The notes: generated from the letters alone by a model not told the origin. Counted from the first letter of the stretch, positions 13,475 through 34,270 are shown. The stretch is 64,000 bases of DNA from Candidatus Enterousia sp. (GCA_045613785.1 JAZLBQ010000026.1:64001-128000), one strand, 5' to 3'. A program made the numbers and translations.

Positions 13475-13490
13475 ACCGGTGTTTACCGGT
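13475..13490. repeat. RCCGGY-N4-RCCGGY motif/hairpin at the mnmG 3' end
   Basis: ACCGGT GTTT ACCGGT. Confidence 0.75.
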
Positions 13491-13496
13491 AATTTT

Positions 13497-15164
13497 TTAT
13501 GCTTTTAATTTTCGCATTACAACCATAATACCTGCTGGTGTCATACCTGGTATTCTTGACAGGTCTGCGACATTTTCTGGTCTTGTTGCATTTAACTTTT
13601 CGACCAGTTCATTTGTCAGTCCTGGCAAACCGTCATAGACAAAATTCAACGGGATTTTCATTTCTGCATCACGTTTATACGCAGCGATTTCACGTTCATT
13701 TCGTGCAATATATCCTGCATACATTTTGTCATTTTCTGCAACTATTTTTCCGACTTGATTCATTCTGGAATCGAATTCCGCACATGTCATCAATCCGAAT
13801 TCGCACGCCATATTTCCCAGACGTTTTATCGCATTATCAGCCCGCAAGTGCAATCTGTATTCTGCACGAGATGTAAACATACGATATGGTTCATCAACCC
13901 CCAGTGTTGTAATATCGTCAATCATAACACCAATCATTGCATTAGTTCTGTCCAGTTCCAGATATTTCTTACCCAATGCAAAAGCGGCAGCATTTACCCC
14001 TGCAACCAAGCCCTGTGCAGCGGCTTCTTCATACCCAGAAGTTCCATTGATTTGTCCTGCAAAGAACAATCCATTATAGTCTTTGGATTGCAGTTTTGCA
14101 TTCAAAGCCCGTGCATCAATAGCGTCATATTCGATTGCATATCCATACCGAATAATTTCAGCATTTTCCAGACCTGGAATTGTCCGAATCCATTTGTCTT
14201 GAACGTCTTTACCGAAACTGGTTGAAATCCCATTAGGATAAATCAGTTCACTGTTATAACCTTCTGGCTCTAAAAATACGTGATGCGTTTTATGTTCTGG
14301 GAAACGCATAACTTTATCTTCCAGACTTGGGCAATACCGTGGGCCTGTTCCAGTAATATCGCCGTTATACATTGGTGCGTCAGAAATATTTTTACGAATA
14401 ATATCGTGTGTTTCTTCATTAGTATGCGTAATAAAGCAAACGTTTTCTTTATTTGTATTTCTATAAGCCTGATTTTCTACATCCAACGAAAACCAGTCGT
14501 GTGGATTATCCCCAGGTTGCACTTCGCAAACATCCAGGTTTATCGAAGACCGTAAAATTCGTGCAGGCGTTCCTGTTTTCAAACGCAGAATTTTAAAACC
14601 TAAGCTTTGCAAGAACTGTGATGTTTTTGAATCATTTTCTTGGTAAGTTCCATCATCTTGCAATCGGCCTGATGGAATTTTTTCACTGCCACGTGTAACC
14701 ACGCCGCCCAAGAAGGTTCCTGTTGTAAACACGATTGCATTTGCAAAGTATTTATCGTTTATTGATTTTTCGATTGCGTTGATACTTTCAACTTTTTCAA
14801 AGATAACCCGAACACCAGTTTCGTTTAGAATATCAACAATTGCATTGTGATACATATCCCTGTCAATTTGTGCACGCAGTGCCTGGGTTGCAGGTCCATG
14901 TGTTGCATTTAATGTTCGCCAGTGGATACCTGCCCTATCTGCGGCTCGAGGCATTACGCCACCAAATACGTCCATTTCTGCAATCATTTGTGATTTGCCG
15001 GGGCCACCAATACTAGGGTTGCATGACATAGCCCCTAAATCTGAATCTGCCAGCGTAATCAGTGCAACATTTGCACCATAATGCTTGGCAGCGACAGCTG
15101 CTTCGACTCCGGCATGTCCACCACCAATAACGATAACATCAAAGTGTTCTGATTTTTGCACCAT
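13497..15164 (-). CDS. mnmG: tRNA uridine-34 carboxymethylaminomethyl modification enzyme MnmG (GidA)
   Basis: GGGHAG, MSCNPSIGG, GPRYCPS, AGQINGTSGYEEAAAQG, EPYRMFTSRAEYRL. Confidence 0.97.
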   Translation of the reverse strand: MVQKSEHFDVIVIGGGHAGVEAAVAAKHYGANVALITLADSDLGAMSCNPSIGGPGKSQMIAEMDVFGGVMPRAADRAGIHWRTLNATHGPATQALRAQIDRDMYHNAIVDILNETGVRVIFEKVESINAIEKSINDKYFANAIVFTTGTFLGGVVTRGSEKIPSGRLQDDGTYQENDSKTSQFLQSLGFKILRLKTGTPARILRSSINLDVCEVQPGDNPHDWFSLDVENQAYRNTNKENVCFITHTNEETHDIIRKNISDAPMYNGDITGTGPRYCPSLEDKVMRFPEHKTHHVFLEPEGYNSELIYPNGISTSFGKDVQDKWIRTIPGLENAEIIRYGYAIEYDAIDARALNAKLQSKDYNGLFFAGQINGTSGYEEAAAQGLVAGVNAAAFALGKKYLELDRTNAMIGVMIDDITTLGVDEPYRMFTSRAEYRLHLRADNAIKRLGNMACEFGLMTCAEFDSRMNQVGKIVAENDKMYAGYIARNEREIAAYKRDAEMKIPLNFVYDGLPGLTNELVEKLNATRPENVADLSRIPGMTPAGIMVVMRKLKA

Positions 15165-15892
15165 TAAAAACGTCCCATACCACCATTTACGTGTAAAGTC
15201 TGACCATTGATATATGCGGCCTCATCAGAAGCCAAGAAGACACAAGCATTTGCGATATCTTCTGGTTCGCCAAATCGTCCTGCTGGGATTTGTGCCAGAT
15301 AATTTTTCTTTAATTCTTCCGGCAAAACATCAGTCATAGGTGTTTTGATAAAACCTGGTGCGATTGCATTTGCTGTGATACCACGAGATGCAACCTCGGC
15401 TGCGATTGATTTTGTCATTGCGATCATACCGCCTTTTGATGCGGCATAGTTTGCCTGACCTGGTCCACCGATTGTTCCGATTATCGAAGCCATATTGATA
15501 ATGCGTCCAAATCTGTTTTTCATCATCGGCATGATTGCGGCCCGACACATTTTGAAACAAGACCGCAAATTAGTATTGATAACATCATCGAATTGTTCAT
15601 CAGTCATACGCATCAACAAAGTATCTTTTGTAATACCGGCGTTATTTACCAGGATATCGATTTTACCGGCTTTTTCGATTGTATTCATAATCAATTCAAC
15701 GGCACCGCCTTCTTGGGCTAAATCCGCAGGGATTTTGATAAAATCATCACCGAACTCGGCGTTCATTTTAGCGATATTTCGACCTGAAACAACAACAGTT
15801 GCCCCTGCTTCCTTCATTTTTTTTGCGATTGCGACCCCGATACCACCTGTTGCCCCTGTAATAAGAGCGACTTTTCCTGTTAAATCAAACAT
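15164..15892 (-). CDS. fabG: 3-oxoacyl-ACP reductase
   Basis: TGATGGIG, NNAGITKD, YAASK; follows fabD. Confidence 0.95.
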   Translation of the reverse strand: MFDLTGKVALITGATGGIGVAIAKKMKEAGATVVVSGRNIAKMNAEFGDDFIKIPADLAQEGGAVELIMNTIEKAGKIDILVNNAGITKDTLLMRMTDEQFDDVINTNLRSCFKMCRAAIMPMMKNRFGRIINMASIIGTIGGPGQANYAASKGGMIAMTKSIAAEVASRGITANAIAPGFIKTPMTDVLPEELKKNYLAQIPAGRFGEPEDIANACVFLASDEAAYINGQTLHVNGGMGRF

Positions 15893-15894
15893 GA

Positions 15895-16770
15895 TTATAT
15901 CTCCAACTTTTTTGCGGTTATTTTATCAGTAATTCTTGAACACAGACCTGTCAAGACATTACCAGGTCCAACTTCTATTTGTTCTGTGATACCTAAGTCT
16001 GCCATATTCAGCACAGATTCACGCCAGCGAACACCATTAGTAATTTGATAAACTAAAGCATCTTTGATTTCATTTATATCTGTCATTGGTTGGCAAGTTT
16101 TATTAGAAATCATCGGCACTGACAGCGAATTAAATTGAACAGATTCCAAAGCGGCTTTCATTTGTTCGGCTGCTGATTTCTGTGCACGGCAATGCACAGG
16201 CACAGACAACGCCAACGGCATTGCACGTTTTGCCCCTGCGTCTTTTGCGGCGGCAATAGTTTCTTCTACTACATCTTTAAGTCCTGAAATAACAACCTGA
16301 CCTGGACAGTTATCATTTGCCACATCGCAATTAGTTTTTGCACAAATTTCACGCACAGTATCAATATCCAGTCCCAGAATCACAGCGGTTAAACCATCAC
16401 CAACCGGGACAGCATTTTGCATTGCATTACCACGAACACGCAACAGTTTTGCAGCGTCTCCCACAGACAATGCACCTGCTGCACACAGGGCAGTATATTC
16501 GCCCAAACTATGTCCTGCAACATATTCAGGCAATGCCACCCCACTTGCACGTAGCATTGCGATACTAGTTGCCATAATTGCTGGCTGAACATTTGCGGTC
16601 AGTGTCAGTTCATCAGCAGGCCCATTAAAAATAATATCCGACAGTTTTTGATTTAACGCATCGTCAACCTCGTCAAAGACGGCACGTGCCGCTGCATTAT
16701 TTTCGTATAAATCTTTGCCCATACCAACGCTTTGTGCACCTTGACCTGGGAAAACAAAAACAGAAGCCAT
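15895..16770 (-). CDS. fabD: Malonyl-CoA:ACP transacylase
   Basis: FPGQGAQ, GHSLGEY, EVGPG. Confidence 0.96.
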   Translation of the reverse strand: MASVFVFPGQGAQSVGMGKDLYENNAAARAVFDEVDDALNQKLSDIIFNGPADELTLTANVQPAIMATSIAMLRASGVALPEYVAGHSLGEYTALCAAGALSVGDAAKLLRVRGNAMQNAVPVGDGLTAVILGLDIDTVREICAKTNCDVANDNCPGQVVISGLKDVVEETIAAAKDAGAKRAMPLALSVPVHCRAQKSAAEQMKAALESVQFNSLSVPMISNKTCQPMTDINEIKDALVYQITNGVRWRESVLNMADLGITEQIEVGPGNVLTGLCSRITDKITAKKLEI

Positions 16771-16799
16771 ATAAAATCCTTTTGTTCAAGACCCTTAAA

Positions 16800-17345
16800 T
16801 TATAGTTTTCTAATTGAAAACTCGCAACCACAATAATTTTGCCGATAAAAATCAGATTCACGATTTATCTGGACACGCAGATTTTCGTCCCATTTAATTT
16901 TTAGATATTGAATATTATTGCAATTTTTTTCGGCAGCCACATCTACTTGGGTCTGACTTTTATGTCGTGAAACGCCCAGCACGCTTGCGATTGCGTTATA
17001 GCCATTTTGTTGTGCGAATTGAACGGCTCTGTGGAAACGATATTCAAAGCACACAGAACATCTTGCACCACGTTCAGGTTCATTTTCCAGACCCATAACA
17101 GCCTTTCGCCAAGCATCATGGTCGTATTCAAGAACTGCATATTTCGCACCAACACTTTCACAGTATTTAATCTGCTCGTTCATACGTTTAGTGTATTCAG
17201 ATTCTGGAAAGATATTAGGGTTAAAGAATAAGACAATAAAATCATCAATATTATCAACAGCGTTTTGGGTCAGTTGCCTAATTGCCCCCGCTGAACACGG
17301 TGCACAACAAGACAACAAAACCAAACGCAATTTATTATCGGACAT
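16800..17345 (-). CDS. queH: Epoxyqueuosine reductase QueH
   Basis: CCAPCS, FFNPNI, EPERGARCSVC, YRQNYCGC. Confidence 0.9.
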   Translation of the reverse strand: MSDNKLRLVLLSCCAPCSAGAIRQLTQNAVDNIDDFIVLFFNPNIFPESEYTKRMNEQIKYCESVGAKYAVLEYDHDAWRKAVMGLENEPERGARCSVCFEYRFHRAVQFAQQNGYNAIASVLGVSRHKSQTQVDVAAEKNCNNIQYLKIKWDENLRVQINRESDFYRQNYCGCEFSIRKL

Positions 17346-17889
17346 TTTGCAAAAATTTTGCCAATATTTCAGGCATTTTACCAGTTGTTGCTGGGTAAAC
17401 CTGATTCATATTATTGTTTACAACGATATCGTTATTATCTAATTCGTGCCAAAAAACAGTTATAGAAACTGGGATTGGGCGTGGTGCTGCCAAAGAGCCT
17501 GGCATTCTCAGACCGATGCTATGCTGTGTATGAGAACCAGTCTTGATTGCAGGAGCGTTCATATTTCTATCATTTATCGCTGGTGAAAATTTTGCACCTG
17601 GATTTGCACGTTTAATATTTTTTGCATTTGTGATTTCATCTGCGACCCACAAAGGCAAAGTTTCTGTTTCAATAACATGTGTTGTGAAATTAGTTTTCAA
17701 ATCATAGTTTTCAACAGTTCTGATAATTTCAATTTTATAAATATCTGGACGACTTGCATTTGCAGACAAAATCTTTTTCATATCATGAATACTTTTGAAA
17801 TCACCATTTGCCATAAATTTTTTACCGTGCAAACGCAGTGTCCAAACTTCACGTGTTCCAATATTTTTTTTATCAAATTTATTTTCCAT
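17335..17889 (-). CDS. Hypothetical protein, paralog of the adjacent ORF 17931-18446
   Basis: 184 aa, overlaps queH; shares YKIE, W(V/I)AD, Q(V/I)YP..TGK.P motifs with its neighbour. Confidence 0.8.
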   Translation of the reverse strand: MENKFDKKNIGTREVWTLRLHGKKFMANGDFKSIHDMKKILSANASRPDIYKIEIIRTVENYDLKTNFTTHVIETETLPLWVADEITNAKNIKRANPGAKFSPAINDRNMNAPAIKTGSHTQHSIGLRMPGSLAAPRPIPVSITVFWHELDNNDIVVNNNMNQVYPATTGKMPEILAKFLQNVR

Positions 17890-17930
17890 CTACTTTTCCT
17901 TTTACTTTTTACCATACATTCCGCTAGGTA

Positions 17931-18446
17931 TTATCGTGTTTTACGTATTATTCTGGATAACACCATTGGGATTTTACCCGTATTTTCCGGATAAATCTGC
18001 TTTAAATTTCTGTCTAAAACAACGTCATTATCAGACAGAGTATGAAGATAATCATCACCAGGAATCAAAAGATTTGTTGGTGCTTGATTACTCATTATAA
18101 CATTTTTACTTTGAATATATCGCTTGCCTTTCGTAATTGCAATTTTTTTGCCACTGGCAGTTTCTGTATATTCGATTTTATCTGCAATCCAGTATTGTTG
18201 AGTTAGCTGTTTTTTGATTGTTTCAAAAACATTTTTTTTGATTATCTGCTTTTCTGTGGTTTTTACCAGTTCTATTTTATATGCATCTGAAAAGCGTTCT
18301 AAATAATCCGAAACATCATGCACGTTTTTAACAATGCCTGCCACGATATGCTCTGCTGTATAAACGTTTATCCTGCAACCTTCTTTTGCATCATCTGTAA
18401 AATCACGAAACAAAGCATACTCACTTAAATCAATTTGACCAGCCAT
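17931..18446 (-). CDS. Hypothetical protein, paralog of ORF 17335-17889
   Basis: ATG at 18446 with AAGG upstream; homologous motifs to its neighbour. Confidence 0.8.
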   Translation of the reverse strand: MAGQIDLSEYALFRDFTDDAKEGCRINVYTAEHIVAGIVKNVHDVSDYLERFSDAYKIELVKTTEKQIIKKNVFETIKKQLTQQYWIADKIEYTETASGKKIAITKGKRYIQSKNVIMSNQAPTNLLIPGDDYLHTLSDNDVVLDRNLKQIYPENTGKIPMVLSRIIRKTR

Positions 18447-18458
18447 AAACAATTACCT

Positions 18459-20450
18459 TTAACCTAGTTTATATTCTGTTCCAATTTCTGCGTCCGTCCC
18501 CAGTTCGATGATTTTATCGCCATCACTGCCCTGTCCAACTTCTGCTGGGCTGCACATCATACCAAAAGACTCTACACCTGCAACAGTTCTTTGTGCCATT
18601 GGTTTTTTCATACCTGGCAATTTAGATCCCACAGGTGCTAAAACCCCACGCAGACCAACATAAACATTTGGTGCACCACAAACAATTTGAACATTTTCAG
18701 TTCCGTTATTTACAGTTAAAACATGTAAATCATCACGTGTTGGGTGATTTTCAACTGCAGCAATTTCAGCGACGATTGGTTTTGGTGTGTTATCAGGTTG
18801 TTTTACAGTATATTTTTCTGTCATTTGTGCAATTTTTTCATCATCAATACGACTAAACAGATTTTCAGGCACTACAAATTCCGCCCCATCAGCAATACGA
18901 GATTCGAATTTTTCTGGCCAAGACAAATCTTGTTTATCTGCAAAAATATTCTGCATTTTTTCTGCTGCCACTGGGATAAAAGGTGCAGACACACGTGCAA
19001 ATAAATCAATCAACTGAAAGCATTGGTTCAATACCTTGCCTGCTGCGTCCAAATCACCATTTTTAACCAATGCCCATGGTTCATATTTGGTCATATATTC
19101 ATTACCGATTGCATACAGACCACGCAAAGCAGCGATTGATGCACGGAATTCACAAGCGTCCAACGCACTTGTCAGTTCTGACAATTTTTCATTGATTTGC
19201 GATTCCAGTTCAGGGTCGATTGTTCCTGTTGCTGGGACATTTGTTCCAAAGTTTTTAGCAGTCAATTTACAAACACGACTTACAAAGTTCCCCAACATAC
19301 CGTTCAGGTCTTTGTTTACAATTTCTGCAAATCGATTGATTGTAAAGTCTGTATCGTCTGTTTCTGGTGCAGACGCAATAATTGCATACCGCCAGCAATC
19401 CGCATCAGCATCCATAATCGCATCGTTTAGGAAAATGCCATTTCCAGTAGATTTTGAAATTTTGGCCCCATTAAAGTTCAAGAAATTAAATGCCTTTAAC
19501 GTATCAACAGTTTTCCAGTTATCGTTCATTGCCAATTCTTGTGCTGGGAAAAAGATTGAATGGAACGAAACATTGTCTTTGCCCATAAATTGTGTATAGT
19601 GAACATCGTCGCCACCAAACCACCAGTCTGCCCAGTTCTCATTTGCTGCCTGTGAAATTGATACATACCCCCACGGTGCATCAAACCAAACATAAAAGAC
19701 TTTATTTTCATATCCTGGCTTATTTACAGGAATACCCCATTTTAAATCACGTGTGATTGGGCTGTCCCGCAAACCTTCGTCCAGCCACTTGTTTGCGATT
19801 GCCAATGCGGTCTTGGGCCACCCTTTTCGTGAATCAATCCATTGACGCAACTTGTCCTGCATTTGACTTGATTTGAAATACAAGTGTTTAGTTTCACGCA
19901 TTTCAACGGGTGAATCTTTTGTAATAGCACTGTGTGGGTTTATCAACTGTTCTGGTTCCAGTGTTGCCCCGCACTTTCCACATTCATTACCGTATGCACC
20001 GTCAAATCCGCATTTTGGACAAGTTCCGATAACAAATCTGTCGGCCAAGAACATTTCGTCTTTGACTGAATAAGGTTGCACAGACGTTTTTTCGACCAAC
20101 ATACCCTGTTCGTCCAGACGTGTAAATAATGACTGAATTAGTTCTGTGTGTTTTTGTGTATGTGTTCTGCCATAGATATCAAAAGACAAACCAAAGTTTT
20201 TAATGGCATCGACGTGTGCTGCACGATACTTATCGACATATTCTTCGACAGGCATATTTTCTTTCATTGCACCGATTTCACTGGCTGTGCCGTGTTCATC
20301 AGCCCCGCAAATGAACAGAACATCACGTCCCATTGCCCGGCAAAATCGTGCATAAACATCACTTGGCAGCAAGCAACCAACCAAATGCCCGATATGCAAA
20401 TTATAGTTTACGTATGGTAATGCCGATGTAATTAAATACTTTTTTGCCAT
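18459..20450 (-). CDS. metG: Methionine-tRNA ligase with a C-terminal PheT-B2-like tRNA-binding OB domain
   Basis: ALPYVN..HIGH, CPKC/CGKC zinc knuckle, YVWFDA, GKDN, KISKS; C-terminal IVCGAPN...GMMCS. Confidence 0.96.
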   Translation of the reverse strand: MAKKYLITSALPYVNYNLHIGHLVGCLLPSDVYARFCRAMGRDVLFICGADEHGTASEIGAMKENMPVEEYVDKYRAAHVDAIKNFGLSFDIYGRTHTQKHTELIQSLFTRLDEQGMLVEKTSVQPYSVKDEMFLADRFVIGTCPKCGFDGAYGNECGKCGATLEPEQLINPHSAITKDSPVEMRETKHLYFKSSQMQDKLRQWIDSRKGWPKTALAIANKWLDEGLRDSPITRDLKWGIPVNKPGYENKVFYVWFDAPWGYVSISQAANENWADWWFGGDDVHYTQFMGKDNVSFHSIFFPAQELAMNDNWKTVDTLKAFNFLNFNGAKISKSTGNGIFLNDAIMDADADCWRYAIIASAPETDDTDFTINRFAEIVNKDLNGMLGNFVSRVCKLTAKNFGTNVPATGTIDPELESQINEKLSELTSALDACEFRASIAALRGLYAIGNEYMTKYEPWALVKNGDLDAAGKVLNQCFQLIDLFARVSAPFIPVAAEKMQNIFADKQDLSWPEKFESRIADGAEFVVPENLFSRIDDEKIAQMTEKYTVKQPDNTPKPIVAEIAAVENHPTRDDLHVLTVNNGTENVQIVCGAPNVYVGLRGVLAPVGSKLPGMKKPMAQRTVAGVESFGMMCSPAEVGQGSDGDKIIELGTDAEIGTEYKLG

Positions 20451-20573
20451 TATTTACCCTTTTTTTACTGCGGAAATTATAAAACATATTTTGAATAAAT
20501 CAATAGTTATAAAAAACTTGAAAAAACAATCGTGTATAGTATGTTAGTAAGCATATAAAGTAATGGATTTAAC

Positions 20574-21083
20574 ATGCAACCAAAAAAACAACTTGATAAA
20601 AACACATTGATATACCTTGTAAATGAAATAACCAAGAATCACGGCATCAAGAACACATCGCCTGTAAAGTTGGGTCGTCTGATGTATTTGTTGTGGCTTG
20701 AATATGCGTCCCTGCAACCAGGTTTGACATTTCCGGAAAACTCACCAATGGCGAATATGCGTTTTATAAATTATGAACGTGGTCCTGCCGAAGAACTAAG
20801 TTCTGATAATTTTGATACAGTCCGTTCTGAAATTTTGGCTGGCAAGATTCCAAACTTTTCCCAGACATCATTTCATTTAAAAGAAAAGCATAATATGGAA
20901 CAGGCTTTTACCACTGTTCGCAACATATATTCAATGCATCGTGCGACAGATTTGTGTAATTTCATTATGTATGAACTACCGACTTGTCAGTTCAAGCCAA
21001 AGATTTGCGAATTGACATTTAATGACCAAGAATTTGTCCGTGAACTTCGTGCATTTATCCGCAAGCGTGATAGATTAAAATAA
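20574..21083 (+). CDS. Hypothetical protein, Panacea/SocA (DUF4065)-like antitoxin domain suspected
   Basis: VKLGRLMYL and FINYERGP resemble KLxKLLY and FxAWxxGPV. Confidence 0.55.
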   Translation: MQPKKQLDKNTLIYLVNEITKNHGIKNTSPVKLGRLMYLLWLEYASLQPGLTFPENSPMANMRFINYERGPAEELSSDNFDTVRSEILAGKIPNFSQTSFHLKEKHNMEQAFTTVRNIYSMHRATDLCNFIMYELPTCQFKPKICELTFNDQEFVRELRAFIRKRDRLK

Positions 21084-21087
21084 AAAG

Positions 21088-21103
21088 ACCGGCAAACGCC
21101 GGT
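21088..21103. repeat. RCCGGY-N4-RCCGGY motif/hairpin
   Basis: ACCGGC AAAC GCCGGT. Confidence 0.75.
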
Positions 21104-21112
21104 TTTTAAATC

Positions 21113-21189
21113 TGGTGGGTGGTATTGGACTCGAACCAACGACCTTTACGATGTCAACGTAACGCTCTAACCAACTGAGCTAACCACCC
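21113..21189 (-). tRNA. tRNA-Val(GAC)
   Basis: GGGTGGTTAGCTCAGTTGGTTAGAGC TTACG-TTGACAT-CGTAA ... GGTTCGAGTCC ... ACCA. Confidence 0.95.
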
Positions 21190-21306
21190 AAAACGACCCG
21201 ATTATAACAGATAAAAATATAATTGCAAATGATATTTCGTAGTTGTGCAAAGTTCTAACCTCCAACCACCTTATTGCGGTGTTTTTTTTATAAATTGGTG
21301 TCAATT

Positions 21307-21432
21307 ATGCATATTATTGACCAAATTGAAGAATATAGACTAAACAACAAAATCCAAGTTTTTCAAATTTGTAATATAATTGGTTTGATAATATTTATAA
21401 TTGCAACAAAATATCCTCTAAAAAACATATAA
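21307..21432 (+). CDS. Possible 41-aa small protein, below the ORF-track cutoff
   Basis: MHIIDQIEEYRLNNKIQVFQICNIIGLIIFIIATKYPLKNI; GGTG upstream; hairpin just after the stop. Confidence 0.35.
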   Translation: MHIIDQIEEYRLNNKIQVFQICNIIGLIIFIIATKYPLKNI

Positions 21433-21436
21433 AAAA

Positions 21437-21452
21437 GCCGGTAAAAACCGGC
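21437..21452. repeat. RCCGGY-N4-RCCGGY motif/hairpin at the accC 3' end
   Basis: GCCGGT AAAA ACCGGC. Confidence 0.75.
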
Positions 21453-25070: not shown

Positions 25071-25086
25071 ACCGGCAAAAGCCGGT
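25071..25086. repeat. RCCGGY-N4-RCCGGY motif, bidirectional terminator-like (mreB/der)
   Basis: A run-ACCGGC AAAA GCCGGT-T run. Confidence 0.8.
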
Positions 25087-26425: not shown

Positions 26426-26491
26426 AACTTTTTCCATTGATTTTTTGTAATTATAAAGCAAAAATATAAATAATCAAATAGGGGCGTAAAT

Positions 26492-27088
26492 ATGAAGAAA
26501 AAAATCAAGAACGTATTCAAGCATACACGTAATCTGATTGTGAATCCGAAACGCTATTTTACCAAGATTGTTGCGGACGGCAACATGGAAGAATCGATGT
26601 TAAAGGCATTTTTATATGGTCTGTTGGGTGGCTGCCTTGTTTTGTTGATTCGTCTGCTAGGTGGTGCGACAATAACACTTGGTGCGATATTCACAGCGAT
26701 TGTGATTGTTCCTGTTTTGGCAGTTGCATTGCTGTTTGTTATGGGTGGCCTGATGATGTTGGTGTCTGAAATCACTGGTGGCGAACGTGATTGGGAGATT
26801 GCGATAAAAGGCCTGGCATCAATATTTTTTATATATCCGATAATACTTGTCCTGAATGCTTTGGCATTTAATTGCACATCTATTTGGGTAATCAGTATGC
26901 TGGTAGATATTTATGTTTTGTTCTTGTTTTATAACATATCGTTGTATTGTATGCGTGGCAAGCGTGGCAATGTTTTAATGGTGATTGGTATTTTGGCATT
27001 GTTTATTGCGACGGTCTATGCCACAGATTATCGAATTGGCTGGTTTATGTTAAAAAATACCAGTGCGACCCTGGCATGCTTATTGTAA
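26492..27088 (+). CDS. Yip1-domain membrane protein (YknW-like)
   Basis: LIVNPKRYF N-terminus, about 5 TM helices, GG after TM3. Confidence 0.7.
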   Translation: MKKKIKNVFKHTRNLIVNPKRYFTKIVADGNMEESMLKAFLYGLLGGCLVLLIRLLGGATITLGAIFTAIVIVPVLAVALLFVMGGLMMLVSEITGGERDWEIAIKGLASIFFIYPIILVLNALAFNCTSIWVISMLVDIYVLFLFYNISLYCMRGKRGNVLMVIGILALFIATVYATDYRIGWFMLKNTSATLACLL

Positions 27089-27095
27089 TGAAAAA

Positions 27096-27111
27096 GCCGG
27101 CAAAAGCCGGT
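27096..27111. repeat. RCCGGY-N4-RCCGGY motif/hairpin
   Basis: GCCGGC AAAA GCCGGT. Confidence 0.75.
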
Positions 27112-27203
27112 TTTTTTATTTTGTGAATACAGATAAATTGCCCCCTGCCCTTGGATATGATATAATATACCAGATATAAATCCGACCAAGGGACATATAA
27201 AAC

Positions 27204-27944
27204 ATGACAGCAAAATTCAAAAATAAAACCAAAAAAGAAAATGTGATATCATTGCATGATATAAATAAAAGTTTCCCATTGGAATTGGGCGGTTTTCAAC
27301 AAGTGTTATTTGATATAAACTTTGATATTCAGGCTGGGGAATTTGTTGCGATAATGGGGCCATCTGGGTCTGGTAAATCAACCTGTATGAATATCATTGG
27401 TGCATTGGACACACCGACATCTGGGGTTTATGAATTATATGGTCGTGATGTGACAGGTTTAACCCCTGATGAATTGGCGATTGTTCGCAATGAATACATT
27501 GGTTTTGTTTTTCAGCAGTTTAATTTATTACCGAAACGCACCGTCCTTGATAATGTAATGTTGCCATTGATGTATCAAGGCCTGCCTATGGATGAAAGAA
27601 TTCGTCGGGCTCGTGAAATGTTGACACGTGTTGGTCTGGAAAAATTTGAAAGTTATCTGCCGACGCAACTTTCAGGTGGTATGAAGCAGCGTGTTGCGAT
27701 TGCTCGTGCATTGGCAGGGAATCCAAAATTGATTCTTGCGGACGAACCTACGGGTGCTTTGGACAGTAAAATGGGGAACGAGATATTACAGTTTTTCAAA
27801 AAACTAAACCAAGACCTGGGAATAACTATTGTAATGATTACCCACGAATTTGATATTGCACGTTATGCAAATCGTCTGATACACATTCGTGATGGTCGGA
27901 TAAATTATGATGGTCCAGTGCCAAAGAACGATAATAATTTATAA
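27204..27944 (+). CDS. MacB/YknY-family ABC ATP-binding protein
   Basis: GPSGSGKST, IGFVFQQFNL, LSGG, ILADEPTGALD. Confidence 0.93.
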   Translation: MTAKFKNKTKKENVISLHDINKSFPLELGGFQQVLFDINFDIQAGEFVAIMGPSGSGKSTCMNIIGALDTPTSGVYELYGRDVTGLTPDELAIVRNEYIGFVFQQFNLLPKRTVLDNVMLPLMYQGLPMDERIRRAREMLTRVGLEKFESYLPTQLSGGMKQRVAIARALAGNPKLILADEPTGALDSKMGNEILQFFKKLNQDLGITIVMITHEFDIARYANRLIHIRDGRINYDGPVPKNDNNL

Positions 27945-27972
27945 AAAATTACTTTTTGTATAAGGGGGGGAT

Positions 27973-29190
27973 ATGACACTAAACGACATTTTAAAAGAAT
28001 CCTGGTTGTCAATCAGTGGCAATAAAATCCGTTCATTTTTGACGGTTTTGGGAATTATTATCGGTGTGATGGCTGTTGTAATAATGGTTGCGGTTGGTGA
28101 AACAGTTCAGCGTGAAATTACAGATCAGTTTTCATCACTTGGCACAAACACAATAATGATACGTGCTGGTGCGGCACAATCTGCTGGTGTTCGCACAGGC
28201 AATCGTCAAACGCTTACTATCCAAGACGCAGAATTTATTGCAAAATTACCTGATGTAATGGCGGTTTCTCCTGTTCAAAATGGTTCTGCCCAGGCAATAT
28301 ATGGCAACAAAAACTGGGGGACATCAATGGTTGGTGTTTATCCCGATTATACAACTGTTCAGAACATAGAAATGGAATATGGCACTTTTTTTGATAACTC
28401 TGCTGTTCGCAATGCATCGACGTATGCTGTGATTGGGCCGGAAACAGCCGAAGAATTAGGTTTGCCGGAAAATCCAATTGGTCAGGTTATCCGTGTTCAA
28501 AACACGCCATTTGTAGTTATTGGTGTTACCCGTGCCAAGGGTGATTCTGCAATGGGCAGCCAAGACGATATGATAATGATTCCGATAACAACGTTAAAGA
28601 AACGCCTACAAGGCTCACGTTTTCCAAACTCTGTGAATATGATTGCGTTAAAGTTGTTTCCTGATTCAGACAACACGGCCGCCATTGAACAAATGACCGC
28701 CCTGCTGCGTCAACGTCATCGTTTAAAAGACGATGCGGTTGATGATTTTCAGATAATGGATATGAAACAGGTAATGGAAACAATGACAACGGTAACTGGA
28801 TATATGAAATTACTGTTGATTGCGATTGCGGCAGTTTCGTTGCTTGTTGGTGCGATTGGTATTATGAATATGATGTTGGTATCTGTGGCAGAACGCACCC
28901 GTGAAATCGGCATACGCAAGGCAATTGGTGCTCGTGAACGAATGATAATTATTCAGTTTTTATCAGAATCTGTTTTAATTTCATTTATCGGTTCGATGGT
29001 TGGTCTGATTATAGGTGTTGGCCTGTCCCAAGGCGTTGGTAGGTTTATACTAGGCTATAATGTTCCGTTCAGTGTATGGCCGGTTGTTTTATCGGTATCA
29101 GTAGCGGTTATTGTTGGTCTGTCTTCGGGTGTTATGCCGGCAATGAAGGCTGCCAAACTAAACCCAATCGACAGTCTGCGATATGAATAA
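27973..29190 (+). CDS. MacB/YknZ-family ABC permease
   Basis: RSFLTVLGIIIGV, GIMNMMLVSVAERTREIGIRKAIGA, PAMKAAKLNPIDSLRYE. Confidence 0.93.
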   Translation: MTLNDILKESWLSISGNKIRSFLTVLGIIIGVMAVVIMVAVGETVQREITDQFSSLGTNTIMIRAGAAQSAGVRTGNRQTLTIQDAEFIAKLPDVMAVSPVQNGSAQAIYGNKNWGTSMVGVYPDYTTVQNIEMEYGTFFDNSAVRNASTYAVIGPETAEELGLPENPIGQVIRVQNTPFVVIGVTRAKGDSAMGSQDDMIMIPITTLKKRLQGSRFPNSVNMIALKLFPDSDNTAAIEQMTALLRQRHRLKDDAVDDFQIMDMKQVMETMTTVTGYMKLLLIAIAAVSLLVGAIGIMNMMLVSVAERTREIGIRKAIGARERMIIIQFLSESVLISFIGSMVGLIIGVGLSQGVGRFILGYNVPFSVWPVVLSVSVAVIVGLSSGVMPAMKAAKLNPIDSLRYE

Positions 29191-29207
29191 CAAAGGAAAG
29201 AAAAAAA

Positions 29208-29223
29208 GCCGGTGTTTACCGGC
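29208..29223. repeat. RCCGGY-N4-RCCGGY motif, bidirectional terminator-like
   Basis: GCCGGT GTTT ACCGGC. Confidence 0.78.
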
Positions 29224-29230
29224 TTTTTCA

Positions 29231-30094
29231 TTACATTTTTAATTTACTTTGCATCTGCACCAAGACCGGCACATCAACGCCTAAACTTTTTGCACGTTCA
29301 ATCAGACCGCACAGTGCAAAAATACCTTCGACTGTTCCTGATGGTTCTTCGCCACGTGCGATAGCCATACCGCCTGAAAAGTTTCTGCTGGTTGGGCTGG
29401 TTGCAGACAAGAACAAATCCCCTATTCCGCAAAGTCCTGAAAAGGTTTCAATTTTTGCCCCCATTGCCAGTCCAATTTTTATTACTTCGTTCCAAGCCTG
29501 TGTAAAAATCAAAGCCCGTTCATTTTCTCCACCTGCGGCAACGCTGTTGTATCCACAAATAAGAGCAACTGCATTTTTACCAACCCCGCAAACTTCTGCA
29601 CCGATTACGTCATCGCTATTGACCAGATACAGTTTATTCAGTATTTCATTGCCTGCGTCCAGTGCCTTGGTTGTTCCTGCCAATGTTGAACCGGTTGGAA
29701 CGCCTTTTGCGACTTCTGCTGCGAATTGTGGGCCTGACAGAACGCCAAAATCGACGCATTCTGGCAATTCAGTTTGCAGAATTTCAGACATAAATTGTCC
29801 TGATGCACATTCTGCCCCTTTGGTGCAAATGATAACAGGCTGTCCGTTATAAGAATTGCGTGCCTTGCGAACTGTATCACGGAAATAGGCAGCAGGCGTA
29901 ACAACCAGCCAAGCGTCCATTTCTTTCAAGTCATCTAAACTGTTTGTTATACGAATATTTTGTGGCAAAACAACATCATCAAAAGATTTATGCTCTCCAT
30001 CATAAGACCACAGCACAACATCTGCACCACCACGTGCAGAAACGATTGCCAATGCAGTTCCCCAGGCCCCTGCCCCGATTACACCTACTTTCAT
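29231..30094 (-). CDS. gpsA: NAD(P)H-dependent glycerol-3-phosphate dehydrogenase (compact)
   Basis: GAGAWGTALA, TKG, LSGP.FA.EV, KN, GIGDL, SRN, VEG. Confidence 0.93.
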   Translation of the reverse strand: MKVGVIGAGAWGTALAIVSARGGADVVLWSYDGEHKSFDDVVLPQNIRITNSLDDLKEMDAWLVVTPAAYFRDTVRKARNSYNGQPVIICTKGAECASGQFMSEILQTELPECVDFGVLSGPQFAAEVAKGVPTGSTLAGTTKALDAGNEILNKLYLVNSDDVIGAEVCGVGKNAVALICGYNSVAAGGENERALIFTQAWNEVIKIGLAMGAKIETFSGLCGIGDLFLSATSPTSRNFSGGMAIARGEEPSGTVEGIFALCGLIERAKSLGVDVPVLVQMQSKLKM

Positions 30095-31707
30095 TTTATT
30101 TTCCTTATTTTTCTTTGGATATTGGGCACAACTGTCAATCCATCATCTGATAAATCAATTGCCCTTTTGTATGCGTTATTTGCTTTATCAAACTCGCCCT
30201 TTTCCGCATACATATCACCCAAATGTTCAAATAAAACAGAACAAGTCTCGGCTACATCACCGACCCGTTCCATCACGTCCAGTGCGGCATCAACACCCTC
30301 ACGTGCCGCCACCACATATCCCAGCGTATCCCACGCCAAGATATCAGTTGGATTTTGCTGAACCAGCGTCATAGCATAGTCATATGCATTATCCAATTCC
30401 CGGTTCTGTGCAGCCCATATTTTGGCCTGCAAAGACATAATTTCACCATCTATTATCAAAGTCTCGGCTGCATCTTTAATATCGTCCTGTGCTGCATTCA
30501 TATTACCAAAAGCATAATGAATTTGTGCACGGTTTTTCAAAAAGAACGCCCGCCCTACTTCGTCCAGGTTGTTATCATTTAATGCACGGCGAACGATACG
30601 CAAAGCGGCACGTTTATTGCCGTGTTGGATATGGTGTCCAATCAGTGTATTTACCCCTGGCACAAACAGTGGATACGATTCCAAAGCTTCTTGCAATGGT
30701 TGCATATTTTTTGTTTTTTCTGCAATACGTAAAACACCGAATAGTCTAAAAGGGCTATCCTTATTTATTTTATTGAAATGCTGTTCAAAGTCGCCCTGGT
30801 TATAAAAGAAATAGTTTCCTAAATAATAATCGACGGCATTATTGCTGGCTGCGAATTCAGGTGCTGTAATTTCTGCGAAACGCAACAGCAGCATTGCCAA
30901 ATCAGAATGCATCATAATACTGGTATGAGAAACATTTTGAACCAAACTGAACGCCAGTTGATTTTTATAACCACTGTAAACAGACCAATCGGGAACATTG
31001 TCAAAATCAGCCATAAACATGCCACCTGGTCGTGCGGTAAAATCAGCCTTTAATTGTTCTGCGTTTTCAGGCATATCGTGATGCGTATAAAATGACATTA
31101 AATACATATAGTCATTTATATTCATAAAGTCTGGACTGACTGCTAAAAAGTTTTCTGTTGCAGTATCGATATCGCCCAGCTCTGCATAGATTTGACCACG
31201 GACAAAAGATTTCCACGAAGCGTTTGTTGGTAATTTATCAATAAATTTAAATGTATTCGTTCGCCAATCGTTTGCAATCGCAGACCAAATACGCAAAGGT
31301 GCTACCAACGCAGATTCGTCATTTTTATGTCTGTTGTGCAATTCCTTCCAATTATCGTTTTGAATCAGGTAAGCGTCATAAATCAACTGTGCTGGCGTGC
31401 TTTTTTCGTTCTTTAACAGACGTGCATCAAACGGCATACGTCCACCCAAGAAATCTGCCAAATAAACAGTGTTTTGCACAATAGGATATTGTTCGTTGTT
31501 TAGTATAGAAACGAATCCAGTTGCGGCATCGAAATCGTTGACATAGATTGCGTGCTGAGCCGCCAAGAAAGCCCCGTATTTTGTTTCTGGGAATTCGTAA
31601 GATTCTACCTTATTATTTTCGAACAAGTGCGTCCAAATTGCACCACCTGTCACAGTGATAATTGTGAACAAACTAACAGTGATAAATATTCTTTCTATTT
31701 TTCTCAT
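30091..31707 (-). CDS. Membrane-anchored TPR-repeat protein
   Basis: N-terminal TM; C-terminal DTLGYV and EHLGDMY TPR signatures. Confidence 0.8.
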   Translation of the reverse strand: MRKIERIFITVSLFTIITVTGGAIWTHLFENNKVESYEFPETKYGAFLAAQHAIYVNDFDAATGFVSILNNEQYPIVQNTVYLADFLGGRMPFDARLLKNEKSTPAQLIYDAYLIQNDNWKELHNRHKNDESALVAPLRIWSAIANDWRTNTFKFIDKLPTNASWKSFVRGQIYAELGDIDTATENFLAVSPDFMNINDYMYLMSFYTHHDMPENAEQLKADFTARPGGMFMADFDNVPDWSVYSGYKNQLAFSLVQNVSHTSIMMHSDLAMLLLRFAEITAPEFAASNNAVDYYLGNYFFYNQGDFEQHFNKINKDSPFRLFGVLRIAEKTKNMQPLQEALESYPLFVPGVNTLIGHHIQHGNKRAALRIVRRALNDNNLDEVGRAFFLKNRAQIHYAFGNMNAAQDDIKDAAETLIIDGEIMSLQAKIWAAQNRELDNAYDYAMTLVQQNPTDILAWDTLGYVVAAREGVDAALDVMERVGDVAETCSVLFEHLGDMYAEKGEFDKANNAYKRAIDLSDDGLTVVPNIQRKIRKIK

Positions 31708-31728
31708 AACTATGTTAGAATAACGCTT

Positions 31729-32289
31729 ATGAACAATAAAGTCAAATTTGAACAGTATGCAGCACTGCTGCAAGAATGGTCTGGGCGGATGAATCTTGTT
31801 GCCCCCAGCACATTAAATGATATAGAAAACCGTCACATTGCAGATTCTGCTCAGTTGGCGGATATTTTGCCATCTGATGTTGATATAATCGATTTGGGCA
31901 GCGGTGCAGGTTTTCCTGGTGTTGTTCTGGCGATATTGGGGTGGCGTGTCACTTGTATTGAATCGATTGGCAAGAAGGTGTCGTTTTTGTCGGCTGTAAA
32001 AGATGCGTTGGGGCTGGATAATTTAACGATTTATCATGGTCGTGTCGAAGAATATGTCCGGCATTTACCGGCAAAAAAGGATAATATTGTGTTTACGGCA
32101 CGTGCATTTGCGTCGCTGACAAAGATAATGGATTATGTTGCACACACAAAATGCCGGCTTTTTTTGCTAAAAGGTCGTGAAATTGCCGGGGAAATATCTG
32201 CTGCTCAGCAACATTATAAATTTAATTATGATTTAACACCATCTAAAACAGGTGATGGATTTATAATTTCTGTTCGTTTTGACCGGTAA
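31729..32289 (+). CDS. rsmG: 16S rRNA m7G527 methyltransferase RsmG (GidB)
   Basis: MNLV, RHIADS, DLGSGAGFPG, TARAF; upstream of parA. Confidence 0.95.
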   Translation: MNNKVKFEQYAALLQEWSGRMNLVAPSTLNDIENRHIADSAQLADILPSDVDIIDLGSGAGFPGVVLAILGWRVTCIESIGKKVSFLSAVKDALGLDNLTIYHGRVEEYVRHLPAKKDNIVFTARAFASLTKIMDYVAHTKCRLFLLKGREIAGEISAAQQHYKFNYDLTPSKTGDGFIISVRFDR

Positions 32290-32303
32290 TTTCATGTGAA
32301 ATA
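32288..32303. promoter_or_regulatory. parS-like site 1
   Basis: AATTTCATGTGAAATA versus canonical TGTTTCACGTGAAACA. Confidence 0.7.
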
Positions 32304-32352
32304 CTGGTTAAATTGTTGAAAAAAGAACAATATTTCAAAATAACACAAAAAA

Positions 32353-32368
32353 GCCGGTAAAGACCGGC
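32353..32368. repeat. RCCGGY-N4-RCCGGY motif between the two parS-like sites
   Basis: GCCGGT AAAG ACCGGC. Confidence 0.75.
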
Positions 32369-32403
32369 GTTTTTAATATTAAAATTGTTGAAAAAATGCG
32401 TTT

Positions 32404-32419
32404 TATTTCATGTGAAATA
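32404..32419. promoter_or_regulatory. parS-like site 2
   Basis: TATTTCATGTGAAATA, near-perfect palindrome upstream of parA. Confidence 0.75.
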
Positions 32420-32526
32420 AAAAATAACAGTATGATTTTAGGGTGTTTTTCATAAAATTTAATAAACTCTTGACCGAATCGACCTGTTTTTATAAGGTAA
32501 AAGTCGAAAGGATAGGGATATTTTAT

Positions 32527-33312
32527 ATGGTAAAAGTAATTGCATTTGCAAATCAAAAAGGTGGTGTAGGTAAAACTACGACTGCAATAAATATTGGTGC
32601 ATCATTGGCGGCGATTAAACGTCGTGTGTTGTTGATTGATCTTGATCCCCAGGGAAATGCTGGCACAGGGTTGGGTTTTGTTCGTGCGGGTCATCGTCAA
32701 AGTGCCTATGGTGTTATAATGGGAACTGCAAATATTGCGGATAATATCTTGACAACTGCTGTTCCTGGCTTGCATTTGTTGCCATCGTCCCAGGCGTTGG
32801 CTGGTTTGGAAATTGATTTGCTGGGGATGGCAAATCCAGAATTTCGCTTGCGTGATGCATTGAATACAATCGCAGAACATTATGATTATATTTTGTTGGA
32901 TTGTCCGCCTGCGTTGGGTTATTTGACTGTAAATGCGTTGACTGCTGCAAATTCGGTTATAATACCGTTGCAGTGTGAATTTTATGCCCTCGAAGGTTTG
33001 ACACAACTAACAGATACAATTGCGGCTGTTCGTGAAAAATGGAATCCGGAATTGGATATTTTGGGTGTGTTGTTGACAATGTATTCTAAACAATATGGTT
33101 TAACTAGGGCGGTTGATGATGACGTTCGTCAGGCGTTTGGCGATACAGTGTTTAAAACTGTTGTTCCGCGAAACGTTCGTGTATCAGAAGCCCCCAGTCA
33201 TGGCAAGCCAGCATTGTTCTATGATTTTAAATCGCCGGGTGCTCAGGCGTATTTGCGCGTAGCGACCGAAGTAATTCAAAAAACCGAAGGAATCGAATAT
33301 GTCAGTGAATAA
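32527..33312 (+). CDS. parA: Chromosome partitioning ATPase ParA
   Basis: NQKGGVGKTTT, DLDPQGN, DCPP, QCEFYALEG, EAPSHG. Confidence 0.97.
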   Translation: MVKVIAFANQKGGVGKTTTAINIGASLAAIKRRVLLIDLDPQGNAGTGLGFVRAGHRQSAYGVIMGTANIADNILTTAVPGLHLLPSSQALAGLEIDLLGMANPEFRLRDALNTIAEHYDYILLDCPPALGYLTVNALTAANSVIIPLQCEFYALEGLTQLTDTIAAVREKWNPELDILGVLLTMYSKQYGLTRAVDDDVRQAFGDTVFKTVVPRNVRVSEAPSHGKPALFYDFKSPGAQAYLRVATEVIQKTEGIEYVSE

Positions 33313-34180
33313 ATTTGGTTTAGGGCGTGGTTTGGCCGACTTGCAACTAGCCAAGGGGACAATCCCAGATATTTCAATTTTGGCTGGCACCGAACGTGTT
33401 GTTGTAAAGCAAATTCCGTTAGCACAAATTGGTGCAAATCCTGATCAGCCACGTAAAACTTTTCCGGATTCTGAATTGGCGGATTTGGCGGCATCTATCC
33501 GTGAAAAGGGTGTTTTGCAACCAATTTTATTACGCACGGTTTCAGGACGTCCATATGCGTATGAAATTGTTGCAGGCGAACGTCGCTTTCGTGCATCTAA
33601 ATTGGCAGGACTGTCAGAGATACCGGCGCTGGTAAAAACGATTGATGATAACAATGCGATGGAAATTGCATTGATTGAAAATGTTCAGCGTGAAAACCTG
33701 AATCCAATCGAAGAATCAAATGCGTATAAAAACCTGATGGAATGTTGTGATTATGAATTGGACGATGTTGCCCGTCTTATTGGGAAATCGGCCAGTTATA
33801 TTCGTAATATGTTGCGTTTGACAGCATTACCTGAATCTGTTCAAGGAATGGTTAGTCGTGGTGAGTTGTCTGCGTCGCATGCACGCACGATTGCGACGGC
33901 TGAAAATCCCGAAGAATTGGCACATAAAATTGTTTCTGAAAAATTATCAGTTGCCGCCACGGATCAGGTTGTAAAAACTGCACCACGTGCAAAAACGGCT
34001 CGTGCACATACGTCAAACACAATCGATGCAGCGACAGTTCAAGATATAGAATCACGGATAAAACGTGCTTTGGGTGTTTCTGTAAAATTGACCGAGCGTC
34101 GTGGTGGGGCAGGGCAGATTGTGTTGTCTTTTGTCAGTCGTCCACAGTTGACGGAACTTGTTGAAAAACTGACCAAGTAA
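33299..34180 (+). CDS. parB: Chromosome partitioning CTPase ParB
   Basis: GLGRGL, QPRK, GVLQPIL, AGERRFRA, ENVQRENLNPIEE, HTH. Confidence 0.96.
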   Translation: MSVNKFGLGRGLADLQLAKGTIPDISILAGTERVVVKQIPLAQIGANPDQPRKTFPDSELADLAASIREKGVLQPILLRTVSGRPYAYEIVAGERRFRASKLAGLSEIPALVKTIDDNNAMEIALIENVQRENLNPIEESNAYKNLMECCDYELDDVARLIGKSASYIRNMLRLTALPESVQGMVSRGELSASHARTIATAENPEELAHKIVSEKLSVAATDQVVKTAPRAKTARAHTSNTIDAATVQDIESRIKRALGVSVKLTERRGGAGQIVLSFVSRPQLTELVEKLTK

Positions 34181-34195
34181 AAAAGTTGAAAAAAA

Positions 34196-34270
34196 GCCGG
34201 TAAAAGCCGGCTTTGTTGTAGGTTGTGTTTGTATAATAAAAATGTTGATAAATTACCGGCTTTTGCCGGT
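34196..34270. repeat. Two oppositely oriented RCCGGY-N4-RCCGGY motifs after parB
   Basis: GCCGGT AAAA GCCGGC (34196-34211) and ACCGGC TTTT GCCGGT (34255-34270). Confidence 0.78.

Follow-up and report, generated by a model that had tools for sequence, protein, structure and literature searches.

A family of CCGG-cored putative terminator hairpins concentrated around parAB in Candidatus Enterousia

In Bacillus subtilis, the RacA-ram system comprises 25 ram regions located from -412 to +200 kb around the origin, and the ram palindrome has a GCCGGC centre, as described in the accessible part of that report (PMC4914108). A preprint on Staphylococcus aureus, in the portion available to us, places the nine ricS sites of the RicO-ricS system in ~700 kb around oriC (bioRxiv 10.64898/2026.03.06.710092). 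In Neisseria and the Pasteurellaceae, inverted copies of the DNA uptake sequence form terminator hairpins, and uptake sequences generally number 1,000 or more per genome, according to the part of the paper at hand (Kingsford et al. 2007, PMC1852404). In this study, we analyzed 64,000 nucleotides of Candidatus Enterousia sp. (GCA_045613785.1 JAZLBQ010000026.1:64001-128000), hereafter the window, in which a 16-bp element with two CCGG cores recurs around parA and parB. We found that the intergenic copies have the features of short bidirectional terminators, and that they belong to a sequence family confined to the genus and concentrated on the origin side of the chromosome.

The element resembles ram and ricS in that some 9-25 short, GC-rich palindromic copies are restricted to the origin-proximal chromosome. 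In those systems, as far as the available parts of both sources go, binding has been demonstrated by chromatin immunoprecipitation and the cognate protein is in hand, whereas no candidate protein was found for the CCGG copies. They also differ from ram and ricS in that the intergenic copies are all predicted terminators, and in that some species have lost most of them. With intrinsic terminators in general, the copies share a GC-rich stem-loop with a tetraloop, flanking A- and T-runs and a position after stop codons, often between convergent genes. Unlike ordinary terminators, they make up one genus-confined, origin-concentrated sequence family, and a different stem family serves the remainder of the genome. 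In a non-exhaustive literature search, we found no description of spatially segregated or origin-centred terminator stem families.

Census and hairpin structure of the motif

The assembly of this genome (G000) is 96.5% complete and consists of 26 contigs totalling 1,044,118 bp, the window being C26:64001-128000. A pattern scan for the strict motif RCCGGYAAANRCCGGY returned nine matches in the window, at exactly the nine coordinates given in the original prediction, and none in 100 dinucleotide-preserving shuffles. The repeated 16-bp motif around parAB is therefore confirmed. These nine copies are the entire set found in the genome-wide scan, and all of them lie inside 21 kb that span the GC-skew switch beside parAB. 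The looser form CCGG-N6-CCGG has 16 sites genome-wide. Ten of these fall between 13 and 35 kb of the window, namely the nine strict copies and an in-gene near-copy at 32058, and an eleventh is a variant at 53144. CCGG pairs at the other spacings from 2 to 13 never exceed seven sites genome-wide.

The cumulative GC skew of contig C26 declines steadily until it reaches its minimum at ~22-24 kb of the window, stays low to ~30 kb and then rises; the motif cluster therefore spans an origin-type skew switch. The zone contains classic origin neighbours: pheT, mnmG, fabG/D, queH, metG, tRNA-Val, accC/B, yidD, rnpA, mreB, der, lolD/C-like genes, gpsA, rsmG, parA, parB, xseB and mutS. The dnaA gene lies on a different contig, and matches to the DnaA box with one mismatch (24 versus 22.9 expected) form no cluster in the window; oriC was not located. 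The proposed concentration around the GC-skew origin and parAB holds genome-wide in G000 and recurs across the genus.

As a whole, the element is an inverted repeat with a 6-bp RCCGGY stem and a 4-nt A/T-rich loop. The idea that each half is itself a palindrome is right for the CCGG core only, the hexamers ACCGGC and GCCGGT not being palindromic. According to the open reading frame (ORF) and Pfam maps, all nine strict copies are intergenic and start 5-20 nt after a stop codon, and the intergenic copies are flanked by an A-run upstream and a T-run downstream. The ten intergenic copies (nine strict plus the variant at 53143) fold on both strands into stems of 6-14 bp with 4-nt loops, with energies of -8.6 to -17.9 kcal/mol. 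The mean energy of the core hairpin is -9.7 kcal/mol for the CCGG copies versus -9.2 kcal/mol for other terminators. An independent consensus scan of 13-33 kb ranked the CCGG copies as the top terminator-like sites, and seven of the eight copies in that interval pass its T-tract rule, either on both strands or on that of the preceding gene. The copy at 27096 passes solely on the strand opposite its gene, yet seven T follow it on the plus strand. After parB, the T tail is weak at 34196 (TTTGTTG) and good at 34255. The imperfect pairs at 27096 and 34196 are G-T on the sense strand, that is, a G-U wobble in RNA.

Because of their position after stop codons, their A- and T-run flanks and their folding on both strands, we consider it safe to regard the intergenic CCGG copies as short bidirectional intrinsic (Rho-independent) terminators, and we infer that they terminate transcription in vivo. 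This agrees with the original prediction that many copies can act as terminator stems. The one metatranscriptomic run found (X1) contained 37% of the sampled words but yielded only short, low-depth contigs unable to show transcript ends; one of them bridges the hairpin at 29208, the bin after parB has no cover, and the run is uninformative on termination. In an Rfam scan of the window, the only matches were four tRNAs.

Three copies are shared by convergent units. The hairpin at 21088..21103 lies between a 169-aa ORF (+) and tRNA-Val (-) and is orthologous in G015 and G016. The one at 25071..25086 serves mreB and der, as found by the scans and by folding, and the one at 29208..29223 lies between the lolC-like gene and gpsA and is orthologous in G015, G004 and G042. 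The other six copies stand between co-directional units. The hairpin at 13475..13490 (scans and folding) marks the 3' end of mnmG upstream of tRNA-Thr, and that at 21437..21452 marks the 3' end of accC. At 27096..27111 (+), with a G-T wobble in its outer pair, a hairpin follows a 198-aa membrane ORF ahead of lolD and is orthologous in G015 and G004. The remaining three lie around parAB: 32353..32368 between rsmG and parA, and two tandem hairpins after parB, at 34196..34211 (identical in G015) and 34255..34270 (+). Outside the cluster, the variant ACCCGGC-AAAT-GCCGGGT at 53142..53159 has a standard CCGG hairpin at the orthologous gene end of G042. The left edge of the CCGG zone is marked by a C-run/G-run terminator after pheT (13294..13317, from the scans); in G004, G006, G042 and G002, a CCGG hairpin occupies the pheT end instead.

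The two copies after parB are present as described earlier. The description needs correcting in that they are in tandem and both lie upstream of a small gene on the plus strand, xseB. This gene encodes the small subunit of exonuclease VII (PF02609, E = 1.7e-19) and occupies 34433-34627 (+), between the parB terminators and mutS. A longer, 88-aa minus-strand ORF at 34344-34610 was rejected as spurious.

Terminator families in the genome and across the genus

A crude hairpin-plus-run scan of the whole G000 genome gave 238 candidate terminators, of which 87 have C4/G4 stems, 56 have C3/G3 stems, 75 have other stems and 20 contain CCGG. Between 13.4 and 34.3 kb, all 8 of 8 candidates are of the CCGG type, versus 12 of 230 elsewhere (Fisher p = 5.6e-10, a generous value, as the zone was chosen after seeing the data). 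The clustering consists of CCGG hairpins in place of other terminators, not of extra ones. At 13294 and from 38 kb on, the stems are TCCCC(C)-N4-(G)GGGGA, in line with the earlier remark on C-run/G-run stems past 38 kb. Under a looser definition the family is less exclusive: six contigs contain, between them, eleven further terminators that have CCGG in the stem but differ in loop or spacing. The AAAN spacer, which had been considered special to the motif, is not: 52 of the 122 tetraloops outside the CCGG family are AAAN or NTTT, a loop preference general to G000. GC-only palindromes are strongly avoided in this genome (observed/expected: CGCG 0.13, GCGC 0.16, GGCC 0.49, CCGG 0.73), and the stem vocabulary is therefore narrowed to C-runs and CCGG. 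The dominant stem outside the origin zone is TCCCCC in G000 and G015, and ACCGCCC-N4-GGGCGGT with ATCGCCC variants in G042. Terminator stem fashion differs between species of one genus.

The strict motif is present in 40 of 41 genus genomes of one draw (0-24 copies, with 0-1 for a reversed control) and in 46 of 46 of a second draw (2-19 copies). Outside the genus, five further genera of the family have 0-1 copies, and the motif is present in 1 of 29 genomes from other families. Across the genus, the consensus reads (A)CACCGGC-AAAT-GCCGGTG(T). In G042, an assembly of five contigs, the skew minimum and parB coincide at ~365-370 kb of contig C1 (416 kb). On that contig, 15 of 16 CCGGYAAANRCCGG sites lie at 288-382 kb, and 14 of 17 CCGG-type terminators lie beyond 280 kb. 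We also tallied distances to parB in ten relatives in which this gene could be placed (G004, G006, G015, G002, G009, G042, G045, G013, G003 and G017). These are kin, not ten independent observations. Among the listed copies, 55 of 114 lie within 25 kb of parB, an interval that makes up 5-6% of each genome. The share ranges from 8/8 in G015 to 3/12 in G002 and 0/5 in G045, and more than half of the copies are dispersed in G070 and G003. Origin restriction of the ram and ricS type is thus found in G000 but not in every species.

These counts bear on the suggestion that the element might be a DNA uptake-type sequence. The element would then be a genus-specific dialect that makes terminators through its inverted pairs, like the uptake sequences of Neisseria and the Pasteurellaceae: a short specific sequence recurring as an inverted pair in the terminator stems of one lineage, with one copy in a poorly conserved protein loop and ComEC encoded in the genome. 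However, 9-24 regionally clustered copies do not fit the numbers given in the consulted part of Kingsford et al. (PMC1852404). They are two orders fewer and regional in distribution; the specific part is only CCGG with covarying neighbours, and no relative with a uniform, high-copy, genome-wide spread was seen. We consider this explanation extremely unlikely.

Orthologous gene ends tell more about the origin of the cluster. G015, the closest species, is fully collinear with the window at 17.5-64 kb (80-82% identity), and every orthologous terminator keeps its family in both zones. A CCGG hairpin is found at the accC end in 7 of 7 genomes compared, at the parB end in 8 of 8 (two of which, G006 and G045, have loop variants) and at the rsmG end in all five genomes whose gene end was read. 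The mreB end carries it in 5 of 7 genomes, with a TCCCCC stem in G006 and G016, and the gpsA end in 5 of 8. Since the same operon ends carry a CCGG hairpin in species after species, the origin clustering across the genus is mostly one inherited state. Losses are also evident. G006 keeps two strict copies, and the origin region of G045 just a loop variant at parB; in G045, pheT, der, the 198-aa ORF and gpsA have no CCGG hairpin, though these genes sit at its origin. The CCGG zone of G000 itself seems shrunken: the gene ends at 1014, 13291, 39308 and 43978 of the window have C-run stems in G000 and CCGG hairpins in G042, G002 or G004. Gene order between the window and G004:C6, G006:C9 and G016:C42 is scrambled at the scale of single operons, at ~75% DNA identity, and nearly all ends of the rearranged blocks fall on terminator hairpins of both families. 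Recombination at hairpins and selection for breaks at operon ends are equally compatible with this pattern.

Two further elements were noted at such gene ends. The C-run terminator at 1025 is followed, at ~1100-1160 of the window, by another conserved hairpin of greater length, TCCCGGTCTTTTTGA ... TCAAAAAAGCCGGGA, which occupies the orthologous place in G004, in G002 and, twice, in G006, where it flanks a 1.6-kb insertion. In G006:C9, TTCCCGC-CTGC-GCGGGAATGAC, a unit related to the REP-like GTCATCCCGGCGNAGGCCGGGATGAC units of the sister genus G102 (see below), stands in place of the mnmG terminator.

Comparison of eight G000/G015 site pairs revealed how the stems change. The CCGG core (0/64 bases) and the three loop A's (0/24) are unchanged, while 14 of 32 R/Y stem positions and seven of eight fourth loop bases differ. 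All the stem changes are transitions, mostly compensatory or passing through G-T. At C-run sites, the stem core is identical in five of eight, and the other three show one extra or shifted stem pair; conservation of the CCGG cores is no better than that of the C-run cores. Outer and inner stem pairs vary freely by transitions, and GC cores are frozen in all terminator types, which weakens the idea of a protein-binding site. The core can be frozen without a protein because a 6-bp stem cannot spare G-C and a swap from C-G to G-C passes through a mismatch. Loop flips (AAAC versus GTTT) look like small inversions within the hairpin.

Altogether, the reading we find rather more probable than its rivals combined, without being confident of it, is that the motif is a terminator family whose clustering reflects descent and local copying. 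One CCGG hairpin family would have arisen within the genus and been inherited at the same origin-side operon ends (accC, mreB/der, lolC/gpsA, rsmG and parB). The origin-centred cluster would be chiefly one ancestral state kept by descent, and neighbouring sites would to some extent have been copied from one another. Stems in the fashion of the individual species would have taken the place of CCGG hairpins outside the cluster and, step by step, inside it as well. Stem change would be confined to transition-type compensatory swaps at two A-T/G-C pairs, and the CCGG core would stay frozen by the need of a 6-bp stem for G-C, with no protein reader required.

Copying between neighbouring CCGG sites is suggested by their sequences. 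The flank said to be shared by the copies at 13475 and 21437 is a 15-mer, AAAACATATAAAAAA, that occurs genome-wide only at 13460 and 21422, immediately 5' of these two copies, a sign of inter-site copying. The pair after parB appears to be an old tandem duplication of ~60 bp comprising the parB end and its hairpin. Its 58-61-bp spacing recurs in G015, G072, G109, G083, G033 and G046, and the lead-in repeated in these pairs is of the AAATAAAAATGTT type in G072, G083, G046 and G033. With the CCGG family excluded, similarity between neighbouring terminators is slightly raised in G000, at 0.465 versus 0.428 after shuffling (p about 0.001), and the same test on G042 C1 gave p = 0.17. General local homogenization of terminators is weakly supported at best.

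Local spread could also have been transpositional, with a repetitive extragenic palindrome (REP, or REPIN when paired) or a miniature inverted-repeat transposable element co-opted as terminator. The copies are, like REPs, short extragenic palindromes at gene 3' ends and sometimes paired. G042 has recurrent, near-identical units of ~30 bp, AAAAAACACCGGCAAATGCCGGTGTTTTTT being an example, a tandem pair follows parB, replacement at orthologous sites involves entire hairpins, one copy sits in a tolerant protein loop, and the sister genus G102 has true REP-like GTCATCCCGGCGNAGGCCGGGATGAC units with a CCGGC core, some of them paired. Several facts weigh on the other side. The Y1/RAYT transposase (PF01797) has no match in the genome, the control being positive in 6 of 14 genomes. 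The unit has no conserved sequence beyond terminator needs, and the parB pair arose by direct tandem duplication, unlike an inverted REPIN. The copies are stably orthologous across the genus, with no target-site duplications seen. We therefore regard a mobile origin as highly improbable. In G102, dozens of GTCATCCCGGCGNAGGCCGGGATGAC units lie in C4:126538-139369, C5 and C8, some as inverted, REPIN-like pairs 58 bp apart. This genome was also considered as evidence of old genome-wide CCGG terminators and discarded, its CCGG-N6-CCGG matches being REP-like and devoid of A/T-run flanks.

The rsmG copy and a possible reader of the CCGG core

Descent with local copying leaves several observations unaccounted for, and we bring them together here as they count against it. 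To begin with, the confinement of the ancestral family to the origin-proximal ~100-150 kb is not explained. Identity to G015 is 81.6-82.3% inside the zone versus 80.1-80.4% outside, and these near-equal values mean that slow evolution near the origin does not explain the retention of CCGG hairpins. Among orthologous gene-end pairs of G042 and G000, the type is kept by 7 of 21 CCGG hairpins versus 1 of 16 of the CCGCC stems of G042; the CCGG family is therefore more persistent, and other types turn over. What resists this account in particular is the near-copy inside rsmG (32057..32072, +). It spans the codons GTC CGG CAT TTA CCG GCA (V-R-H-L-P-A) in the variable loop of RsmG, has no U-tract on either strand and is not a terminator. 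A CCGG-N6-CCGG is kept in this loop in 30 of 41 genus genomes, 26 in the register of G000 and four (G095, G014, G003 and G002) shifted by exactly 10 nt. The shifted register reuses the CCGG of Pro-Ala and adds a downstream CCGG where the first is absent. In the 28 genomes with Arg..Pro-Ala, Arg is CGG in 28/28, Pro is CCG in 28/28 and Val is GTC in 25/27. Descent and hairpin energetics taken together do not explain this CCGG pair.

The rest of the rsmG alignment sharpens the point. Among 73 degenerate columns, none is better conserved than those of Arg, Pro and Val, and a neighbouring Arg codon varies (CGT 18, CGG 4, CGC 3, AGA 3). Both fixed codons are rare choices in 14 window genes: CGG accounts for 19 of 318 Arg codons and CCG for 38 of 247 Pro codons. 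Genomes differ in the residue encoded between the CCGGs (H, Q, D, R, S), and the inner stem pair is often mismatched; the conserved part consists of two CCGGs at a distance of 10 bp and the A/T-rich spacer between them. A check for conservation at synonymous sites, proposed at the outset, was thus positive for this copy, that is, at one locus. Other in-gene CCGG-N6-CCGG copies do not recur across species, although the gene adjoining the window on its left may provide a second case, found in G004 and G006. In the one outgroup rsmG examined (G101), there is no CCGG; its flanking DNA looks AT-rich, so that the lack may be compositional. A second third-position island in rsmG, ACA AAA nGC CGG CTT TTT (32145-32165), is held in ~38 of 41 genomes, even where the residue varies, and may be part of a parAB promoter or another signal. 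The last rsmG codon, CGG, is likewise fixed at its third position. Past the rsmG stop codon, CCGG-N6-CCGG is found at 46-66 nt in 20 of 41 genomes, and anywhere in the 300 nt read in 23 of 41.

The rsmG copy lies ~230 nt upstream of the first of two parS-like sites, 32288..32303, which overlaps the rsmG stop codon and whose ATTTCAYRTGAAAT core follows that stop in G004, G006, G016 and G015. The second parS-like site, 32404..32419, is upstream of parA, and the hairpin at 32353 stands between the two, as had been noted. Canonical parS gave just three-mismatch matches in the window, at chance level, and was set aside in favour of this genus variant. The sites at 32288 and 32404 are separate from the motif and conserved in relatives, and the CCGG motif has no arm in common with canonical parS and does not belong to that class. 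The suggestion of an alternative ParB target is not borne out: the genome encodes one ParB only, and this protein has its own parS-like sites adjoining the motif.

These observations leave room, at the level of a serious but minority possibility, for a genus-specific DNA-binding factor that reads duplex CCGG-N6-CCGG, with its half-sites one helical turn apart, and marks or organizes the origin/parABS region, as a counterpart of RacA-ram or RicO-ricS. Such a centromere-adjacent system of a reduced alphaproteobacterium might be economical, which we hold just as tentatively: sites would be embedded in terminators or, in the absence of a terminator, in a tolerant rsmG loop just upstream of parS. 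In favour of a reader, nine strict copies lie within 21 kb across the skew switch and about half of those listed in the relatives lie near parB; copies at 32058, 32353, 34196 and 34255 bracket parS-parA-parB. The non-terminating rsmG copy is held at synonymous sites, even through a register shift, with only the two CCGGs and the A/T-rich spacer fixed. The greater persistence of the CCGG family, the CCGG-free outgroup rsmG and, as far as the consulted parts of those sources go, the RacA-ram and RicO-ricS precedents point in the same direction.

Other evidence speaks against a reader. Copy number ranges from 0 to 24 per genome, most origin-proximal copies are lost in G006 and G045, and copies are dispersed in G070 and G003. 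The clustering across species is largely one inherited state and not a set of independent cases. All intergenic copies lie precisely at places that call for a terminator and show no excess constraint relative to C-run terminators. The AAAN loop is common to all terminators of G000, and the outgroup lack of CCGG is perhaps a matter of composition. No candidate protein was found among the zone ORFs, ParB or MerR-type frames: four hypothetical zone ORFs (169, 184, 173 and 198 aa) match no Pfam family at E<=0.01, and the single MerR-type (MerR_1) match is a 131-aa frame far from the origin. The claim of an origin-domain protein-binding site is therefore not supported as regards binding, and terminators clustered by descent and local copying remain our preferred account. 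Two of the hypothetical ORFs, adjacent to each other at 17335-17889 (-) and 17931-18452 (-), encode the 184- and 173-aa proteins, which have no Pfam family and are apparently paralogous; their C-termini contain a similar stretch, ...N-D-[IV]-V...Q-[IV]-Y-P...T-G-K-[IM]-P....

Single CCGGs also attract attention in this region. Paired GATC sites and SeqA are the analogue of a further explanation, in which methylated CCGGs one helical turn apart near the origin would be read in a replication-dependent manner. In the 3' half of rsmG, synonymous sites are fixed at several single CCGGs (columns 153-154 and 197, the final codon), there are seven CCGGs in 310 bp (32058-32364) versus 1.3 per kb in the window, and the genome has two C5-methyltransferase genes. 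However, the chromosomal one adjoins an NgoFVII-like endonuclease domain and offers no evidence about CCGG, the partner presumably pointing to a methyltransferase target other than CCGG. The second methyltransferase gene lies on a small, CCGG-avoiding contig. Searches of G000 and 25 relatives for HpaII-type and Bse634I-type endonucleases found none, the second search having had no positive control in any genome. This explanation appears very unlikely to us.

The chromosomal genes form a restriction-modification pair at G000:C7:139467-141696, made up of a 384-aa protein with an NgoFVII-type C-terminal DNA-binding domain and, next to it, a 330-aa C5 cytosine methyltransferase; CGCG and GCGC are the tetramers most strongly depleted in the main genome (observed/expected 0.13 and 0.16). 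Ten small contigs (C6, C9, C11, C13, C16, C17, C18, C19, C20 and C23; 50,994 bp in total) have a lower GC content and contain one CCGG, one GGCC, six CGCG and five GCGC, versus 47-140 expected of each. They look like phage, plasmid or a foreign replicon evading restriction, and one of them, C17, carries its own C5 methyltransferase.

Implications for terminator evolution and origin organization

If the CCGG copies are only terminators, they offer a clear natural case of stems evolving as discrete, lineage-specific families, one of them frozen around the origin for as long as the genus has existed, and would bear on the birth, copying and replacement of terminators in streamlined genomes. In practice, metagenome-assembled genomes could be marked by terminator type, both for position and for taxonomy. 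Should the core sequence be read as well, this would represent an origin-domain organizing system in an uncultured gut alphaproteobacterium with a tiny genome, whose binding sites double as terminators, and the site inside rsmG would provide a precise handle on the question.

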